From NCBI GenBank assembly GCA_024572335.1, contig GCA_024572335.1_3052.1: a stretch of 64,000 nucleotides of DNA, one strand, 5' to 3'. Positions 2,300-32,838 of the stretch are shown here, one piece after another. The stretch's first letter is position 1. Every line of letters begins with the position of its first letter. Source of the DNA: a phage. The translations under genes were made by a program, and so were the position numbers. The notes under the pieces are model-generated. The model was not told where the DNA came from. It worked only from the letters and a program-made list of their open reading frames with translations, and did no database searches.

Positions 2300-2474
2300 G
2301 GAGTTTAATTTCCTTAGCAACTGAACTAAATACAGCACGATCGCAAATCATGCGTTTATGTAACTTGAGTATAATATAGCAAACTTCAAAACTATTTACA
2401 TGAGTAACACGAACAGCATTACCATTAATGAGATAATACTGCCCCTTTTTAATTTCTTTATCAACCATAACCAT
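2292..2474 (-). CDS. hypothetical protein (60 aa)
   Basis: first ORF downstream of early promoter at 2505-2534. Confidence 0.4.
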   Translation of the reverse strand: MVMVDKEIKKGQYYLINGNAVRVTHVNSFEVCYIILKLHKRMICDRAVFSSVAKEIKLHG

Positions 2475-2504
2475 ATCAATTCCTCAAAGGCAATTCATAT
2501 GTTA

Positions 2505-2534
2505 ATAATACCACAGTTTGAGCTTGTTGTAAAC
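2505..2534 (-). promoter_or_regulatory. sigma70-type early promoter (T4 early consensus-like)
   Basis: on minus strand GTTTAC (2529-2534) - 18 bp - TATTAT (2505-2510); flanking tgtaaacaactttgtgaaa repeat. Confidence 0.6.
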
Positions 2535-2599
2535 AACTTTGTGAAAATTATTTTAGGGAATGATAAGAAGGGAACGATAGCTTAGAATGGTAATATACA

Positions 2600-2630
2600 G
2601 AATGTGAGAAAGAAAGGCCCAGAGGGCCCG
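2600..2630 (-). terminator. intrinsic terminator
   Basis: minus-strand GGGCCC-UCU-GGGCC followed by UUUCUUUCU. Confidence 0.55.
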
Positions 2631-2632
2631 TC

Positions 2633-3055
2633 TTAGTCTTCTATGATATCTCTATCATATCCAAGTGAAATGAGAGTTTCTTTGAAGTGTTTAATGTTCT
2701 TTTGTCTAGAATCATTAATGAAAATGACTGGATAACGAATGTTAAGAGATGTGAATCCAGCGCGTTTAGCAAGAGATACAATCAGCGGACGATCATACTC
2801 AATCTTACCGTTATTTGTAAGAACTTTATAGAAAGTAAAAGGAGCATTAAGCTCCTTTAGAAGTTTTGTAACTGATTGACATCCAGGACAACGACCTACT
2901 TCTTCGGGGATGCCATAGATTTCAATCTTATTCTTTAAATTCGAGTTTTGTTCCACGAGAAATAATTCCTTGATAAGCCCAGTATGGCGGGTTAACAGAA
3001 TCCTCACCAGAGTTTTCTTCAGGAAAATAAACCTGGATAACGAAGCCGGATTCAT
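2633..3055 (-). CDS. glutaredoxin/NrdH-like redoxin (CPGC active site); start uncertain
   Basis: CPGCQ CxxC motif within IEIYGIPEEVGRCPGCQ...; the domain has no internal Met and its frame overlaps the upstream ORF; only ATG is at 3053-3055 with no SD. Confidence 0.45.
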   Translation of the reverse strand: MNPASLSRFIFLKKTLVRILLTRHTGLIKELFLVEQNSNLKNKIEIYGIPEEVGRCPGCQSVTKLLKELNAPFTFYKVLTNNGKIEYDRPLIVSLAKRAGFTSLNIRYPVIFINDSRQKNIKHFKETLISLGYDRDIIED

Positions 3056-3239
3056 CAAAGGTGAAATAAGTAGTAGGCAGTTCACCTAACAAATCGGCAC
3101 GAGCGTTGATTTCTTCGAGGTCTTGTTCACGTCCAGCCCAGAAGCTTGGGTTCAGACTACATTCATAGAAATAATAGTCATTACCGAACATATCAAAACC
3201 ATTCCAACTCTCTACTACATACCGCTCAAAACTAATCAT
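2928..3239 (-). CDS. hypothetical protein (103 aa)
   Basis: ORF; stop lies inside the redoxin reading frame (see finding). Confidence 0.45.
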   Translation of the reverse strand: MISFERYVVESWNGFDMFGNDYYFYECSLNPSFWAGREQDLEEINARADLLGELPTTYFTFDESGFVIQVYFPEENSGEDSVNPPYWAYQGIISRGTKLEFKE

Positions 3240-3241
3240 AA

Positions 3242-3457
3242 TTAAGCCTTTTTATCAAGAACAGCATTCAGCTTGTTAGTAATTTTATCCAGACGCTTAT
3301 TGAACTCACTAGAAGATAAGCCCTTTTCTGGAGAAATTAAACTAATAACGAAAAATACAACAATAAAAGGAATAAGAAAAATAGCTCCAACTGCCATAAA
3401 CAAAAAGAACGTTACAGTTGTAAGAAAATCAGCTAAACCTTTACGAAATTTATACAT
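3242..3457 (-). CDS. small membrane protein (71 aa, one TM helix)
   Basis: hydrophobic stretch VTFFLFMAVGAIFLIPFIVVFFVISLI. Confidence 0.45.
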   Translation of the reverse strand: MYKFRKGLADFLTTVTFFLFMAVGAIFLIPFIVVFFVISLISPEKGLSSSEFNKRLDKITNKLNAVLDKKA

Positions 3458-3572
3458 ATTTTACCCTTAATTGATTAACCAAGCATTGATAAGCACTAAA
3501 CTATATTGGGAATAAAATTCTGGACCAAAATGAAAAATCATATCATTTATAGTATCCATAATGTAATTCAGT

Positions 3573-24535: not shown

Positions 24536-25009
24536 TTATTTGAACGATTTAACGTACTGAATAGAACCCTTACTATTCACAAAGGCAATTTTACCATTTT
24601 TATTATACATGGTAGCAGTACGCTGATAACCATAGGTTTGTTTACCAGATTGATAACCAACTAATGCAAAATTATCTTCACCCATTTTATTCTGTTTAGC
24701 GCGAATGCGTTCATGACCATGTGCCATAAGAACCTTAGCATCACCAGTTGCAATGGATCGACGAGTTTTTTCATCTTCAACTGCATTAACAAAGTCGTCA
24801 AATGAATCAAATTTAGCATGAGATTTATTATACAATTTTCCATCTACTGCATAATTATATCCCTGTACATCCATCTCAACTTCTGTACCATCATCCAATA
24901 CAGCAGTAATTTTTTGACCTTTTTTAAATTTCAAAAGATCAGTAAAAGATTCAGCAATAATTTGAGAATTAATAGCTGCTTCAGTGATAAATTCTTGATA
25001 TGTTTTCAT
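24536..25009 (-). CDS. internal-protein-like head protein with capsid targeting sequence
   Basis: N-terminus MKTYQEFITE|A matches the T4 IP leader MKTYQEFIAE ending at a gp21 cleavage site; early promoter 25064-25093. Confidence 0.7.
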   Translation of the reverse strand: MKTYQEFITEAAINSQIIAESFTDLLKFKKGQKITAVLDDGTEVEMDVQGYNYAVDGKLYNKSHAKFDSFDDFVNAVEDEKTRRSIATGDAKVLMAHGHERIRAKQNKMGEDNFALVGYQSGKQTYGYQRTATMYNKNGKIAFVNSKGSIQYVKSFK

Positions 25010-25097: not shown

Positions 25098-26066
<969 letters not shown>

Positions 26067-26070
<4 letters not shown>

Positions 26071-26555
26071 TTTAATTTCCTGCATTCAGTGATAAAGTTA
26101 TTTAAATTTTGAGTGTATTTCTTTTCATCAAAAATCTTTTGCTGTCTGCGTAGCCGCCATGGCATTTCAATGAACACGCACCATATCCCAGATAATATTG
26201 CTGCAGTAAAAATATTAACAAGTATGGTTAAAAGAATCCAATCTCCTATTCTGTCCATTGGATTTTTTATAAAAAAGTAAAATACGAATGATGTCACAGG
26301 AAGACTAATAATATACCACAGAATCATAATTTTATCTGTGAACCAATCAGCGTTCGTTAACTTAGCGCGACCATTATGAATACACACGAATTTATCATCT
26401 GTTATAATAGATGGCTTAGCTGCTTGATATCCCATTCTAAACTCACTAATCAACAAATTTTTCATATCTTCGGAACAACCATTCCAGTCAACTCTATCAA
26501 CTGAAATGCCATCATCCCCATCATCTAAATCATACCAGCGAGTTTTTAAAATCAT
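26067..26555 (-). CDS. membrane protein (162 aa, 2 TM)
   Basis: hydrophobic segments IMILWYIISLPVTSFVFYFFI and WILLTILVNIFTAAILSGIWCVFI. Confidence 0.45.
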
Positions 26556-28571: not shown

Positions 28572-28904
28572 TTATTCTTCGTCCAATTCATCAATAAATT
28601 TATCGATACTACTATTAATAGACTCATCGATGATTAACAAAGCATCATCATCTATAATATTAATATTTTCTAAAGCATCAATATAAGCTTGATTGACTAT
28701 AGACCATGCCCTTTGAAAATATGGGGTTTCATCATCAGGACTGAACCAACGTACACCTTCAAAGATACGTTTAGCATAATCCAACACCCATTGTACAGGC
28801 ATGTTTTGAGAGCGTTCATTAAACTCTTCAAAGTCCTTAGATTCAAAAAGCTCTTCAGGATAATAATTTCTATTACAAAAAGCTTTACTAAAGTTACGTT
28901 TCAT
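28572..28904 (-). CDS. hypothetical acidic protein (110 aa)
   Basis: ORF with GAGGAGAA SD; early promoter 28931-28960. Confidence 0.45.
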   Translation of the reverse strand: MKRNFSKAFCNRNYYPEELFESKDFEEFNERSQNMPVQWVLDYAKRIFEGVRWFSPDDETPYFQRAWSIVNQAYIDALENINIIDDDALLIIDESINSSIDKFIDELDEE

Positions 28905-28930
28905 AATGTTCTCCTCAAAGTTATAGGCTC

Positions 28931-28960
28931 ATAATATCTCAATCATGAGCCTGTGTAAAC
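28931..28960 (-). promoter_or_regulatory. early promoter with -10 embedded in an inverted repeat
   Basis: GTTTAC (28955-28960) - 18 bp - TATTAT (28931-28936); inverted repeat aggctcat/atgagcct at 28925-28952. Confidence 0.55.
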
Positions 28961-29224
28961 TTATTTCATATTATTGAAATATTCTTCAGCAATTTCATCA
29001 TTATCATGATAAACTTTAGAAGACAGTTTAACATAACTTTCAGCAGTGAACATGTTAATCACAACCTTTACAGTATACCACTGACCATCTTCATTACCCA
29101 TTACTGCGTAAGTTTCAAACAACGGATGATCAGGACCGATAACTTTAATATCATTCACTGTACGACCGAAATCTTCTGAAACACATTTCATAAAGAAGTT
29201 GAACAGTTCGCCGTAATTATCCAT
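28961..29224 (-). CDS. hypothetical protein (87 aa)
   Basis: ATG 29222-29224 (complement) after GGAGAA SD; ORF-track start at 29287 would lie inside promoter 29268-29297. Confidence 0.45.
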   Translation of the reverse strand: MDNYGELFNFFMKCVSEDFGRTVNDIKVIGPDHPLFETYAVMGNEDGQWYTVKVVINMFTAESYVKLSSKVYHDNDEIAEEYFNNMK

Positions 29225-29267
29225 TTCGTTCTCCAAGTTGTTTTCTGTATCAGTAGTTGATAGTTGT

Positions 29268-29297
29268 ATAGTACCATGGAAGGACAAGGATGTAAAC
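29268..29297 (-). promoter_or_regulatory. early promoter
   Basis: GTTTAC (29292-29297) - 18 bp - TACTAT (29268-29273). Confidence 0.55.
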
Positions 29298-29440
29298 CGT
29301 TTTGTGAAAAAATTTTTAAAAAGTTTTGGGGAATTCTAGGGCAGGGAGGGGAAATCAAAGGATAGGATAATATATTATAAAGGGTAGAAACTAAATGATG
29401 TCTAGAGAGGCCTGGAAAGGCCTAGATACCAAAAAGCCCC

Positions 29441-29467
29441 AACCTTTCGGCTAGGGCTAAGAATGTT
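29441..29467 (-). terminator. intrinsic terminator, copy B of a duplicated 31-bp element
   Basis: minus-strand GCCCUAGCC-GAAA-GGUUGGGGC + UUUUU; one substitution relative to 29986-30012. Confidence 0.65.
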
Positions 29468-29939
29468 ATTTGATTTGTTTAGCAGACCAAATGCGGTCTT
29501 TAATAATTTTTTGGATGTCTTCAACATACTCAAGAGAGTGAGCATGTGGGTTATCTTTGAAACTATAAGCACGAGCTAACTTTTGACCTTCAGTTTTGAT
29601 TACTAAAAGCTCTTTAAGGATAGCTTCATATTTGGAGATAATTCCTTTAACAATATTTTTCTCTTGTGCGACTTTAGGATCTGCTTTAGGAGCAGGTTTA
29701 CCCGAAGCCTTTGCAAAAGCAGCGCCAGTAGCAACTAAACTTTTCCAGGCCATACTAACTGCATTTCCCGTAAATCCTTCTGCTTTCATGTCGCGAGCAA
29801 ATTGGAATCGTGATTCATCAGAAGCATCTTTATAGGAATATTTACCCGCTGCAATGGCTGCTTTTGCGACAGCTTGAATTTCGGTGCTAGACGCTTCATT
29901 TAACACCGCTTCATTTAAAAATTGAGTATATGATTTCAT
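29466..29939 (-). CDS. candidate packaged internal protein with variant capsid targeting sequence
   Basis: N-terminus MKSYTQFLNE|A (variant of MKTYQEFIAE); own TATAAATA late promoter 29976-29983 and AGGAAA SD; flanked by duplicated terminators. Confidence 0.6.
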   Translation of the reverse strand: MKSYTQFLNEAVLNEASSTEIQAVAKAAIAAGKYSYKDASDESRFQFARDMKAEGFTGNAVSMAWKSLVATGAAFAKASGKPAPKADPKVAQEKNIVKGIISKYEAILKELLVIKTEGQKLARAYSFKDNPHAHSLEYVEDIQKIIKDRIWSAKQIK

Positions 29940-29975
29940 CTTATTTCCTGTTTTAATTTGTAGATTTAATATACT

Positions 29976-29983
29976 TATTTATA
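29976..29983 (-). promoter_or_regulatory. late promoter (TATAAATA) of the CTS-protein gene
   Basis: minus-strand TATAAATA about 37 bp upstream of ATG 29939. Confidence 0.55.
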
Positions 29984-29985
29984 CT

Positions 29986-30012
29986 AAAAAGCCCCAACCT
30001 TTCGGCTGGGGC
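29986..30012 (-). terminator. intrinsic terminator, copy A, ending the tRNA/stable-RNA transcription unit
   Basis: minus-strand GCCCCAGCC-GAAA-GGUUGGGGC + UUUUU. Confidence 0.65.
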
Positions 30013-30018
30013 TAAGCC

Positions 30019-30320
30019 TTGCGGCAACCTTGTCGGGGTTCCACCTGCTAAGGCAAGTGTTTGTACGAAACGCCGGGATTCGAACCCGGTTATCAAGCAG
30101 TTGACGCTACTCAATATTTTTAAAAGGCCATATCTCGACCATATCCGAACGTTCCGTCAAAAACGCTACTCGGCTTACGGCAAAGATATTTCCTCGAATC
30201 GATAATTCGGTGCGCCGTTTCTGCTGTGATATAAGGGGACATTAACAAAACATAAAGATTTATTAATGCCAGTCCTTAAACAGGGAACATCAGTCCGACG
30301 ACTTACCGGTAGCGACCCGG
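30019..30320 (-). ncRNA. candidate small stable RNA(s) with a tRNA-like T-arm (compare T4 species 1/2 RNAs)
   Basis: non-coding 300 bp between an ORF and terminator; perfect T-arm CCGGG-TTCGAAT-CCCGG at 30071-30090 but no pairing acceptor stem or anticodon arm. Confidence 0.35.
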
Positions 30321-30324
30321 TTTC

Positions 30325-30675
30325 TTAATATTCTTTTAAAGCATCAATCTGTTCACGGCGTTTACGCCATAAATCAATTGCTTCATACGCAGATTCAGCA
30401 TTTCGAATTAGCCGGCATTTATGTAAAGACTTATGATTTTGATATTGTGTAGATAATGGAATTGTATCTAAAAGGTCTTTACGATCAAAGTATTCGTAAC
30501 CATCTAAACCAAATGAACGATTTTTGAGAAATTGCCAATGGCCAAATTCATTTTCAACATAAACATAATCTGCATGCTGATAAAGTAAATTAATTACACG
30601 TTCAGAAATAGCAGTATCATTATGATTAAAATAGAATGTTAAATCATGAACTACTAAATAAACATTACCTTTCAT
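30325..30675 (-). CDS. hypothetical protein (116 aa) between the tRNA cluster and the stable-RNA region
   Basis: ATG 30673-30675 (complement) after GAGGAAA SD; the ORF-track TTG start at 30723 would overlap tRNA-Arg. Confidence 0.45.
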   Translation of the reverse strand: MKGNVYLVVHDLTFYFNHNDTAISERVINLLYQHADYVYVENEFGHWQFLKNRSFGLDGYEYFDRKDLLDTIPLSTQYQNHKSLHKCRLIRNAESAYEAIDLWRKRREQIDALKEY

Positions 30676-30693
30676 ATTTTCCTCACTTATAAT

Positions 30694-30770
<77 letters not shown>

Positions 30771-30777
30771 TATTTTG

Positions 30778-30849
30778 CGGACGTGATAGGATTCGAACCT
30801 ATAACCAATCGCTTAACAGGCGATCGCTCTGCCATTGAGCTACACATCC
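30778..30849 (-). tRNA. tRNA-Asn (anticodon GUU)
   Basis: acceptor GGATGTG/CACGTCC, anticodon arm ATCGC-CTGTTAA-GCGAT, T-loop TTCGAAT; no encoded CCA. Confidence 0.75.
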
Positions 30850-30853
30850 AAAT

Positions 30854-30940
30854 TGGTGGGGAGTGGTGGAGTCGAACCACCCGAGTCGCAATGACAATGA
30901 ATTTACAGTCCACACCGCTACCTCTACGGGATAACTCCCC
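30854..30940 (-). tRNA. tRNA-Tyr (anticodon GUA), class II with long variable arm
   Basis: acceptor GGGGAGT/ACTCCCC, anticodon loop CTGTAAA (as in E. coli tRNA-Tyr), T-arm GGTGG-TTCGACT-CCACC, CCA; D-arm atypical. Confidence 0.6.
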
Positions 30941-30949
30941 AAATTAATT

Positions 30950-31024
30950 TGGTGGCCCTGGGTGGAATTGAACCACCATCTGGCGATTATGAGTCGCTTG
31001 CTTGAACCTTCCAGCTACAGGGCC
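30950..31024 (-). tRNA. tRNA-Ile (anticodon CAU, probably lysidine-modified, AUA-reading)
   Basis: acceptor GGCCCTG/CAGGGCC, anticodon stem-loop GCGACTCATAATCGC resembling E. coli ileX, CCA encoded. Confidence 0.75.
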
Positions 31025-31025
31025 T

Positions 31026-31101
31026 TGGTGCTGATTAACGGAATCGAACCGCCGACCTTCTCATTACAAGTGAGTTGCTCTACCTACTGAGCTAAATCAG
31101 C
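31026..31101 (-). tRNA. tRNA-Thr (anticodon UGU)
   Basis: acceptor GCTGATT/AATCAGC, anticodon loop CTTGTAA, T-loop TTCGATT, CCA. Confidence 0.8.
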
Positions 31102-31106
31102 AAAAC

Positions 31107-31196
31107 TGGCGGAGGCGATAGGATTTGAACCTATGAGTCGCCGGAGCGACTGCCGGTTTTCAAGACCGGTGCATTAAACCACTCTGCCACGCCTCC
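31107..31196 (-). tRNA. tRNA-Ser (anticodon UGA), long variable arm
   Basis: acceptor GGAGGCG/CGCCTCC, anticodon arm CCGGT-CTTGAAA-ACCGG, T-loop TTCAAAT, CCA. Confidence 0.8.
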
Positions 31197-31198
31197 AG

Positions 31199-31273
31199 TC
31201 TCCATACAAGGATTTGAACCTTGGACCTCCTGATCCCAAATCAGGCGCTCTACCAAACTGAGCTACACGGAGT
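31199..31273 (-). tRNA. tRNA-Pro (anticodon UGG)
   Basis: anticodon arm CCTGA-TTTGGGA-TCAGG, T-arm CAAGG-TTCAAAT-CCTTG; 2 nt from tRNA-Ser; no encoded CCA. Confidence 0.75.
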
Positions 31274-31282
31274 AAATTAAAT

Positions 31283-31356
<74 letters not shown>

Positions 31357-31361
31357 AAATT

Positions 31362-31448
31362 TGGTGCGAGAAGTGGGACTCGAACCCACAAGGAAATCAT
31401 TCCGCAGCATTTTAAGTGCTGTGCCTTTACCAATTTGACCATTCTCGC
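31362..31448 (-). tRNA. tRNA-Leu (anticodon UAA), long variable arm
   Basis: acceptor GCGAGAA/TTCTCGC, anticodon arm CAGCA-CTTAAAA-TGCTG, T-loop TTCGAGT, CCA. Confidence 0.8.
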
Positions 31449-31449
31449 G

Positions 31450-31522
31450 CTGGGAATAAAGGACTCGAACCTTTGCATCCTGGAATCAAAATCCAGTGCC
31501 TTACCAACTTGGCTAATTCCCA
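31450..31522 (-). tRNA. tRNA-Gln (anticodon UUG)
   Basis: acceptor TGGGAAT/ATTCCCA, anticodon arm CTGGA-TTTTGAT-TCCAG, T-loop TTCGAGT; 1 nt from tRNA-Leu. Confidence 0.8.
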
Positions 31523-31619
31523 ATTATTAACAAAGGCTCTCAAGCAAGAACCCTTGATGATAGAGGGTATTAATCAGTGCGGTATGAGTTAATAATAACA
31601 AATAATTCTTAAAGCATAT

Positions 31620-31907
31620 TTACCATTTATGATAATACATATTTACGATGCACTCAAGACCCAAAGGATTCTTGAAAATATCATATTCAAGAGGACCTTT
31701 TTCTGTTTCAATAAAGAAATCAAAATTTACTGTATTAAATTTACGGTCTTCCTTCACTAATTTAACTTGAGAAGATGAACGGTCAACATAAACCTTTTCA
31801 ACTTCAAAACATGTTAAAACGCCATAATCATCAATCAAGGCTTTAGCCGCGTCTTGATCATATTTATATCCATTTTCAATGGACGATACTTTAGCATAAA
31901 GAATCAT
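31620..31907 (-). CDS. hypothetical protein (95 aa)
   Basis: ORF. Confidence 0.45.
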   Translation of the reverse strand: MILYAKVSSIENGYKYDQDAAKALIDDYGVLTCFEVEKVYVDRSSSQVKLVKEDRKFNTVNFDFFIETEKGPLEYDIFKNPLGLECIVNMYYHKW

Positions 31908-32553: not shown

Positions 32554-32838
32554 TTACAAAAGATTTTTAGCAATAATTTTAAGCTGAGCTACTGAAATAT
32601 GCTTGGCTTTAAACAAAGCAGTTTCTTCAGCAGGGGAGATAACGATTGTAGCACCATCTTTCTTAGCGGACCATCCATCACCCAGGTAAACAGTACCTTT
32701 GACTTCTTCGCCATCAACCAGGCTAATCATCGGTTTACCTTCACGTCCTTTGTTTGCTTTAATAACTTCAGAAGTAAGGGTCGCTTCAGTCAAAGTAGAA
32801 GCGTTAGTGGTTGAAGTGAATTCTTGATAAGTTTTCAT
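32554..32838 (-). CDS. internal-protein-like head protein with capsid targeting sequence (ipI-locus position)
   Basis: N-terminus MKTYQEF...LTE|A; gene sits upstream of 57B as T4 ipI does; early promoter 32869-32898. Confidence 0.65.
   Translation of the reverse strand: MKTYQEFTSTTNASTLTEATLTSEVIKANKGREGKPMISLVDGEEVKGTVYLGDGWSAKKDGATIVISPAEETALFKAKHISVAQLKIIAKNLL

Follow-up and report, generated by a model that had tools for sequence, protein, structure and literature searches.

Gene A, as we call an open reading frame of 157 codons lying between rnaC and e.8, is likely to be an unrecognised member of the internal protein (IP) class of T-even phages, carried as a self-contained late cassette at a third IP locus. 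We identified it in the window, that is, the whole 64,000-nucleotide stretch of phage DNA that was analysed. An earlier note, made from the same letters, had proposed the product as a candidate injected protein, and our analysis supports that reading with corrections; packaging, cleavage, injection and an anti-defence role are what we infer, and each is argued below at its own strength.

Genomic setting and expression signals

The window is Tequatrovirus (T4-like) DNA: bases 28900-30700 match 776 phage records, with Shigella phage SHBML-50-1 as the best match (98.6%). Along the minus strand lie, in this order, the tRNA cluster, an RB69ORF150c-like ORF, rnaD, rnaC, gene A, e.8, an e.7-like gene and e.6. 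The last gene of the tRNA/stable-RNA transcription unit is rnaC, and that unit is closed by the upstream copy of a terminator repeat whose second copy lies beyond gene A. Rfam returned only tRNAs across 28800-31700, with no family for rnaC/rnaD or for the terminator. The features of the locus are as follows.

30694-31522, minus strand: cluster of 10 tRNA genes
30064-30202, minus strand: rnaC (species 1 RNA), identical to the annotated T4 rnaC at 136/139 positions; RB68 annotates rnaC at the same relative position
29981-30016, minus strand: upstream 36-nt repeat copy, intrinsic terminator with stem-loop at 29990-30013, GAAA loop and U-run (-20.6 kcal/mol)
29976-29983, minus strand: late promoter box of the T4 type, TATAAATA, immediately following the U-run of the terminator, about 36-40 nt before the ATG
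29946-29949, minus strand: Shine-Dalgarno AGGA, 7 nt 5' of the ATG, read from the sequence
29466-29939, minus strand: gene A, candidate internal protein of 157 aa, translation starting MKSYTQFLNEAVLNEASS
29426-29461, minus strand: downstream 36-nt repeat copy, intrinsic terminator with stem-loop at 29435-29458 (-18.3 kcal/mol), starting 4 nt past the stop codon

Translation confirmed the reading frame that the earlier note had described, opening with MKSYTQFLNE/A (here and below the slash marks the putative cleavage site), and both the minus-strand late promoter and the Shine-Dalgarno sequence that it had listed are present. The gene corresponds to RB32ORF132c, RB51ORF140 and RB68_138, and belongs to PHROG 2280. 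A match to TATAAATA by itself is evidence of little weight (18 matches in the window for 10 expected, about 1.8-fold); its value comes from its position and its conservation. The same order of terminator and then TATAAATA, with the box about 40 nt ahead of the ATG, is found upstream of the homologues in fPS-65, phiKp_22 and fHe-Yen9-01, the fPS-65 box is annotated as 'predicted late promoter', and the PhAPEC2 homologue carries AATAAATA at the promoter position. Altogether the arrangement of terminator and late box occurs in four genera.

By tblastn, the protein is encoded in 512 phage records, and in 470 of these the match covers 80% of its length or more. Comparison with the Mosigvirus orthologue gave a dN/dS of 0.06, a value obtained with saturated dS, which indicates that gene A is under strong purifying selection. 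We rejected the idea that the reading frame is not a gene on the strength of this ratio, the number of records that carry it, and the detection of its peptides (see below).

The terminator repeat

The two repeat copies lie in direct orientation and are 94% identical according to the repeat finder, and each is a predicted intrinsic terminator with a 10-bp stem, a GAAA loop, a U-run and a folding z of about -3.7. The claim that a duplicated terminator brackets the gene thus stands, with some adjustment of its details. The element had been described as 31 nt long, upstream at 29986-30016 and downstream at 29441-29471; the upstream position is right, the downstream one is 10 nt off (29431-29461), and the repeat extends to 36 nt, with no overlap with the stop codon. 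We also considered whether these might be two independent look-alike terminators, and rejected this since the repeated sequence runs past the hairpin at either end and has no further counterpart in the window: no third copy with three or fewer mismatches was found in the 64 kb (shuffled sequences give an expectation of 0). Neither copy has a match to a sigma-70-like promoter. The repeat has been seen before, as the RB51 GenBank record already says 'flanked by 34 bp imperfect direct repeat'.

Empty and filled sites

The gap between e.8 and rnaC in T4 (NC_000866) measures 284 nt and holds exactly one terminator copy and no gene. The T4 flanks are as in the window (left, ...caaggttgccgcaa.ggttag; right, tttttggtatctaagcctttcc). 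The upstream copy in the window corresponds to the single terminator of T4, and the sequence that follows the downstream copy, ggtatctaggcctttcc, directly follows that single terminator in T4. The window can therefore be written as T4 plus a 555-bp unit made up of the late promoter, the Shine-Dalgarno sequence, gene A and the second terminator.

A comparison of the locus across T-even genomes, which had been suggested as a check, shows that some of them lack the cassette. The T4 junction is matched in one piece, as expected of an empty site, in T4, T2, RB3, Salmonella phage Manna, Sf24 and W143, and PST is also empty at rnaC-e.8. Filled sites, recognised as two-piece matches spanning about 836-840 nt, are the majority, and roughly two thirds of Tequatrovirus-like records carry gene A. 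Frameshifted alleles of the gene circulate. Gene A is non-essential in nature: T4, T2, PST and others are viable without it.

Outside Tequatrovirus, the Mosigvirus gene A (76% identity) lies between the tRNA/rnaC unit and e.8 just as in Tequatrovirus, and that of Jiaodavirus (about 40% identity, mainly in the N-terminal half) lies between tRNAs and e.8/e.6-like genes. Tegunavirus has a two-gene late operon near tRNA genes, with a B-like gene (see below) followed by an A-like one. The family is conserved across genera, unlike the IPs with their fast turnover, and this is as compatible with housekeeping or assembly as with an arms race.

A second cassette at the same locus

A second gene, which we call cassette B (RB69ORF149c / RB14ORF136 / fPS-65 g135c; 187 aa), uses the same locus and the same upstream terminator as gene A. 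It carries the same type of leader (MKTYAEFLTE/AAK...) and differs in its downstream terminator. Cassette B is present in 165 records, as against 512 for gene A. The locus thus exists in four states, empty, A, A+B and B, and in all of them the common right flank follows the T-run of the last terminator. With the terminators of the two types written as T1 and T2 and the late promoter as PL, the layout in fPS-65 and PhAPEC2 is T1-PL-A-T1'-B-T2, and that in RB69 is T1-B-T2.

BLASTP aligns A and B over the leader alone. Profile methods go further: PHROG 2280 is matched end to end by both A (2.9e-60) and B (2e-53), and hhalign aligned the two over 162 columns with a probability of 96% and an E value of 2e-9. 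By these sequence comparisons A and B are remote paralogues, and we rejected the view that they are unrelated on the basis of the common PHROG and the hhalign probability. Between Tequatrovirus and Mosigvirus, cassette B keeps about 97% identity, which implies recent horizontal spread and shows that cassettes at this site do move.

History of the cassette

The earlier note had read the cassette as inserted by recombination at a terminator. We find the reverse more probable: gene A was probably ancestral at rnaC-e.8 and lost by deletion in the T4, T2 and PST lineages. We read T4-type empty sites as deletions because the position of gene A is kept across genera and its divergence tracks them, a pattern that, with the dN/dS of 0.06, fits a long stay at the site and inheritance by vertical descent. 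In either direction, recombination could make use of the two homologous 36-nt terminator copies to add or remove the cassette.

Recent entry of the cassette into an empty site like that of T4 would account for the finding that the empty T4 site and the filled site differ by exactly one repeat unit plus the cassette, and the near-identity of cassette B between genera documents horizontal movement at this very site. We nevertheless consider it rather unlikely for gene A, which occupies the same position in three genera and lies near tRNA genes in a fourth, falls to 76% and then to about 40% identity in step with the genera, and is carried by most Tequatrovirus-like records; deletion between 36-nt direct repeats is also the simpler event. 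Ancestral presence followed by deletion is therefore the history that we prefer.

The leader as a probable capsid targeting sequence

The N-terminus of the gene A protein is the feature that links it to the IPs. A review of the work of Black reports that IPIII needs no more than its first 10 residues to be packaged; within this capsid targeting sequence (CTS), targeting depends chiefly on residues 4 and 7 and processing on residues 8 and 10 (PMC9026906). IPII and IPIII both start MKTYQEFIAE/A. The gene A leader has Y4, F7, L8 and E10, which are all four of the positions mapped in the IPIII CTS, and these are followed by an alanine.

29910-29939, minus strand: leader, codons 1-10 (MKSYTQFLNE), CTS-like propeptide ending at a gp21-type L-x-E/A site
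29892-29918, minus strand: 15-nt tandem duplication in the leader, with 12-nt exact repeats at 29892-29903 and 29907-29918

The duplication creates a second L-N-E/A motif (FLNEA-VLNEA), so that L8-N9-E10/A11 is followed by L13-N14-E15/A16; the five duplicated residues are missing from the Mosigvirus, Jiaodavirus and other homologues. The expected N-terminal peptides are SYTQFLNEAVLNEASSTEIQAVAK for the unprocessed protein (tryptic) and either AVLNEASSTEIQAVAK or ASSTEIQAVAK for the gp21-processed one (semi-tryptic).

All homologues share M1 and F7, and each of them has Y or F at position 4. The leader reads MKSYAEFLTE/Q in Mosigvirus, MKFKEFLAE/A in Jiaodavirus and MLEYSEFLKE/L in Tegunavirus, and in more distant proteins MLKFNEFLAE/G, MINFSDFLNE/G, MKSFSSFLNE/G and MATSFNEFLLSE/L. 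These more distant proteins come from an exhaustive profile search of 1.84 billion representative proteins, which gave only 13 hits, and in them identity outside the leader falls to 26-31%. Homologues lacking the leader, which the earlier note had held would argue against packaging, were sought; none was found among the full-length homologues of that search, even at 26-31% identity. The leader codons differ between orthologues, which argues that the peptide is conserved and not the DNA. From the identity at the mapped residues, we infer that the leader is a capsid targeting sequence, and the L-x-E followed by a small residue would provide a cleavage site for gp21.

Only three ORFs in the 64-kb window start with M-[KL]-x-[YF]-x-x-F, namely gene A and the two below.

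32554-32838: ipI homologue, PHROG 4363 'internal virion protein'
24536-25009: IpIV gene, PHROG 3155, annotated ipIV in PST

Reported particle association of an orthologue

The Yersinia phage fD1 (= phiD1, HE956711) encodes a protein, g140, that is 98.7% identical to the gene A protein. Table S3 of Skurnik and colleagues marks g140 as 'PPAP' (particle-associated) by LC-MS/MS, a label that, at the strict threshold applied, required two or more peptides and spectral counts averaging 2 or more in ultracentrifuge-purified virions, and the fD1 IpIV orthologue, g129, is likewise marked PPAP (PMC8309999). The same preparation held 137 of the 277 phage proteins together with 672 host proteins, and included DenV, NudE and Tk (thymidine kinase) (PMC8309999). 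The label 'particle-associated' is of low specificity in fD1 because so many non-structural phage proteins and host proteins were in the preparation. The virion proteomics that the earlier note called for hence gives a detection, of limited specificity: it proves that g140 is expressed, and is consistent with packaging while being no proof of it.

One could suppose that gene A encodes an ordinary late cytoplasmic protein, with a CTS-like N-terminus that is a relic of recombination with IP genes or reflects a preference in translation initiation, and with a mass-spectrometric signal that stems from contamination. The composition of the fD1 preparations, rich in non-structural phage proteins and with its 672 host proteins, would fit such a reading. 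The leader does not: it is kept while the codons and the remainder of the protein diverge (MKSYTQFLNE, MKFKEFLAE, MLEYSEFLKE, MINFSDFLNE, MKSFSSFLNE), which indicates selection on the peptide rather than a DNA relic. Moreover, the leader is compatible at all four experimentally mapped CTS positions, and expression from a late promoter would coincide with the assembly of proheads. We regard a purely cytoplasmic protein as very unlikely, and consider that the gene A protein is probably packaged and injected, as a candidate on present evidence.

Properties of the protein

The gene A protein is Lys-rich and basic. Its mature form would have a mass of 15.5-16 kDa, down from 17.3 kDa before cleavage, and a pI of 9.5-9.6, and the IPs of T4 and of the window have values of 9.0-9.65. 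Structure prediction, another of the proposed checks, gave an all-helical AF2 model with a pLDDT of 75, in which residues 5-15 fall below 50, so that the leader is predicted to be unstructured. Residues 18-71 form an N-domain of three helices in the model, a Pro/Lys linker follows, and the C-terminal part is a long helical hairpin.

The model led to no informative fold match. Foldseek searches with it returned nothing at E <= 0.001 from the PDB and only the protein's own orthologues from BFVD. In Pfam the best hit was Shikimate_dh_N, below threshold (E 0.12, 13 bits for a cut-off of 27), and we treated this identity as chance. PADLOC gave no match for gene A, and outside the leader we found no similarity in sequence or fold to characterised IPs or anti-defence proteins. 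Family, defence-system and fold searches were equally uninformative for the characterised IPs.

Proposed mechanism and function

Based on this analysis we can present a proposal for how the cassette works. The upstream terminator would end the tRNA/rnaC unit, and late gp55-RNA polymerase would then start at TATAAATA, giving a transcript that, judging by sequence and conservation, would cover gene A alone and end at the second terminator copy. By its identity at the CTS residues, MKSYTQFLNE would dock the precursor to the prohead core, the gp22 scaffold, and the gp21 prohead protease would presumably cut after Glu10, after Glu15 or after both. The mature all-helical basic protein would stay among the packaged DNA, a step partly backed by the fD1 proteome. 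It would be ejected with the DNA and could thus act before any phage gene is expressed.

As to what it might do there, the earlier note had named IPI* as the one functionally characterised protein with this leader. That no longer holds. Three proteins, Ip1, Ip2 and Ip3, block GmrSD type IV restriction enzymes, a different one in each case (Silas et al., 2025; PMC12373910), and Bas37_0260, a CTS-bearing protein encoded at the ipI locus of Bas37, inhibits McrBC (HIDEN-SEQ preprint, 2025). We propose type IV inhibition for gene A because the four CTS proteins with known targets that are cited here (Ip1, Ip2, Ip3 and Bas37_0260) all inhibit type IV enzymes. By this analogy, the most likely role would be that of a stoichiometric inhibitor of a host type IV nuclease or of another immediate-early defence. 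We put the chance that the protein inhibits a modification-dependent nuclease or another such defence at a little under even.

The main alternative to defence inhibition is a CTS-packaged protein that serves mainly in head assembly or DNA condensation, by neutralising the charge of the DNA or stabilising the core; it is suggested by a degree of conservation that is unusual among IPs. Under strong purifying selection, the family is kept at the same locus in Tequatrovirus, Mosigvirus, Jiaodavirus and Tegunavirus, while arms-race IPs are replaced wholesale; a Lys-rich basic protein with a long helical hairpin would suit such work, and loss of IPIII halves the rate of head assembly (PMC9026906). 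Yet T4, T2, PST and other phages without gene A are fully viable, frameshifted alleles are in circulation, and every CTS protein with an assigned target so far is an anti-restriction factor. We therefore judge a role mainly in assembly or condensation to be quite unlikely, and keep inhibition of a host defence as the favoured role.

A broader version of the defence hypothesis can be put forward tentatively. The members of PHROG 2280, A and B together, could be an ancient paralogous family of injected proteins at a third IP locus that neutralises a broadly conserved immediate-early host barrier, and so a new class of anti-defence protein. We think of a broad barrier rather than of one GmrSD subtype because the family is kept in at least four genera, whereas classical IPs turn over. 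This is a speculative suggestion, which we consider less likely than not.

Relation to known systems

The likeness of gene A to the T-even IPs lies in its leader of about 10 residues, of the form M-K-[ST]-[YF]-x-[EQ]-F-[LI]-x-E/A, on a small basic protein, and in its genetics: it is polymorphic for presence and absence, dispensable, without homology to other IPs past the leader, and bordered by repeated regulatory stem-loops through which genes can be shuffled. In 1994, Repoila et al. reportedly described diverse IP genes that share a conserved leader and are shuffled via flanking regulatory homologies. Unlike the T-even IP genes, gene A lies outside the two canonical loci (ipI next to 57B, and ipII/ipIII next to e), and has its own TATAAATA late promoter directly after a strong GC-rich terminator. 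It is also conserved in at least four genera rather than replaced, and is known here from sequence. IP genes were held to be absent outside the two recognised loci (Arbiol et al., 2010), and the Krisch-lab annotation of PST names IPs at those two loci only.

The cassette also resembles the PeSL (promoter-early stem-loop) elements, mobile regulatory cassettes of T4-like phages (Arbiol et al., 2010; Comeau et al., 2014), in which a unit of terminator stem-loop and promoter is repeated around a non-essential ORF in a hyperplastic region, and in which close relatives differ by exactly the cassette between the repeats. It differs from them in that its flanking unit bears the late gp55-type TATAAATA and not a sigma-70-like early promoter, and in that the repeat occurs in two copies only in the 64-kb window. 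With Bas37_0260 and Ip2/Ip3, the inhibitors of McrBC and GmrSD, gene A shares an N-terminal signal on an otherwise novel sequence and the character of a T-even accessory gene; no sequence or structural kinship to these proteins was found.

Previous annotation is generic. Among roughly 125 named members of the A/B cluster and the GenBank records, all but three bear only names such as hypothetical, uncharacterized or 'Phage protein'; a UniProt entry for a Klebsiella-phage homologue reads 'Internal head protein', and two cassette-B entries bear in addition the name 'isopenicillin N synthase-like dioxygenase'. Literature searches by locus tags and ORF names returned nothing relevant to gene A, Petrov (2010) makes no mention of it, and the HIDEN-SEQ preprint holds no data for it. 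Judged from the names in these records, gene A is probably an unannotated addition to the known IP class, at a third locus where none was expected. As a candidate for experiments it is a good one, though it brings no conceptual surprise.

Significance

Injected IPs act before phage gene expression, and each new CTS family is a candidate for finding the matching host defence. The gene A family is widespread; Bas36 and Bas43 carry it, and its carriers as a whole include therapeutic phages and phages of the BASEL collection. Its recognition would improve the annotation of hundreds of genomes and add a testable determinant of host range. In addition, the repeat of terminator and late promoter neatly illustrates how single-gene modules come and go in T-even phages. 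Finally, with gene A recognised as an IP, packaging by CTS would prove to have a wider reach than has been assumed.

A second cassette at the gene A site

The rnaC-e.8 site, where gene A (the candidate internal protein gene) sits, can also host a second leader-bearing cassette, cassette B, and in Tegunavirus relatives of the two genes share an operon:

L006 (phage fPS-65), 2000-2563: cassette B
L004, 3089-3652: cassette B
L007, 2741-3303: cassette B
L008 (phage fHe-Yen9-01, a Tegunavirus), 2340-3537: two-paralogue late operon, a B-like then an A-like gene, 9 nt between them

The 187-aa product of cassette B (RB69ORF149c / RB14ORF136) opens with the leader MKTYAEFLTE|AAK, the bar marking the predicted prohead protease cut site. 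The cassette is present in 165 records and is broken into ORF149c and ORF148c in RB69. Cassette B and gene A are remote paralogues: both belong to PHROG 2280, and hhalign pairs them with a probability of 96%. Between Tequatrovirus and Mosigvirus, cassette B is ~97% identical whereas gene A is 76% identical, which suggests that B moved horizontally in recent time. In the Tegunavirus operon, one terminator and one late promoter box (TATAAATA) lie upstream of both genes, whose order is the reverse of that in Tequatrovirus and Mosigvirus, where A precedes B.

The tRNA region of the window (30325-31522, minus strand) differs from that of T4: it holds ten tRNAs, with Asn and Tyr added, lacks the segB homing endonuclease gene and carries an extra ORF:

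30325-30723, minus strand: RB69ORF150c / RB51ncORF141c-like ORF, between tRNA-Arg and rnaD

In T4 and PST, segB goes with an empty gene A site, whereas in RB51 and RB68 the site is filled and the SegB-like gene is truncated, so how the gene A cassette is inherited might be affected by SegB-driven co-conversion.

Variation within gene A

29892-29918, minus strand: 15-nt tandem duplication inside the gene A leader (TTAAATGAAGCG twice, spacing 15 nt)

This duplication doubles the LNE|A protease motif (FLNEA-VLNEA), and could yield two alternative mature N-termini. Tequatrovirus alleles carry it; those of Mosigvirus, Jiaodavirus and more distant homologues do not.

Gene A is also recurrently cut by a frameshift at an A-run, as in fPS-65 (L006 1399-1737; CAAGAAAAAAAAATAT vs CAAGAGAAAAATATT in the window) and in proteins P0014, P0026 and P0040. 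The products, 97-112 aa long and ending in ...KELSLNMKLSLKSF, occur in both Tequatrovirus and Mosigvirus; they could stem from errors in sequencing the homopolymer, or the slippage and pseudogenisation could be real.

Other leader-bearing genes in the window

24536-25009, minus strand: IpIV gene, 157 aa, MKTYQEFITE|AAINS; in PHROG 3155 ('internal virion protein') and named ipIV in the PST annotation
25606-25626, minus strand: two TATAAATA boxes, 13 nt apart
32554-32838, minus strand: ipI homologue, closely similar to T4 IPI, with a long 19-residue leader, MKTYQEFTSTTNASTLTE|ATLTSEVIK

At the locus adjoining the lysozyme gene e, the window has the single IpIV gene where T4 has ipII and ipIII, and the 70 nt upstream of it are almost the same as the region upstream of T4 ipIII. 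The paired boxes fall within the 37 nt that separate nudE (25630-26085) from e (25098-25592), and may serve e as tandem late promoters. Counting the ipI homologue, this phage would carry three leader-bearing proteins, one at each of three loci.
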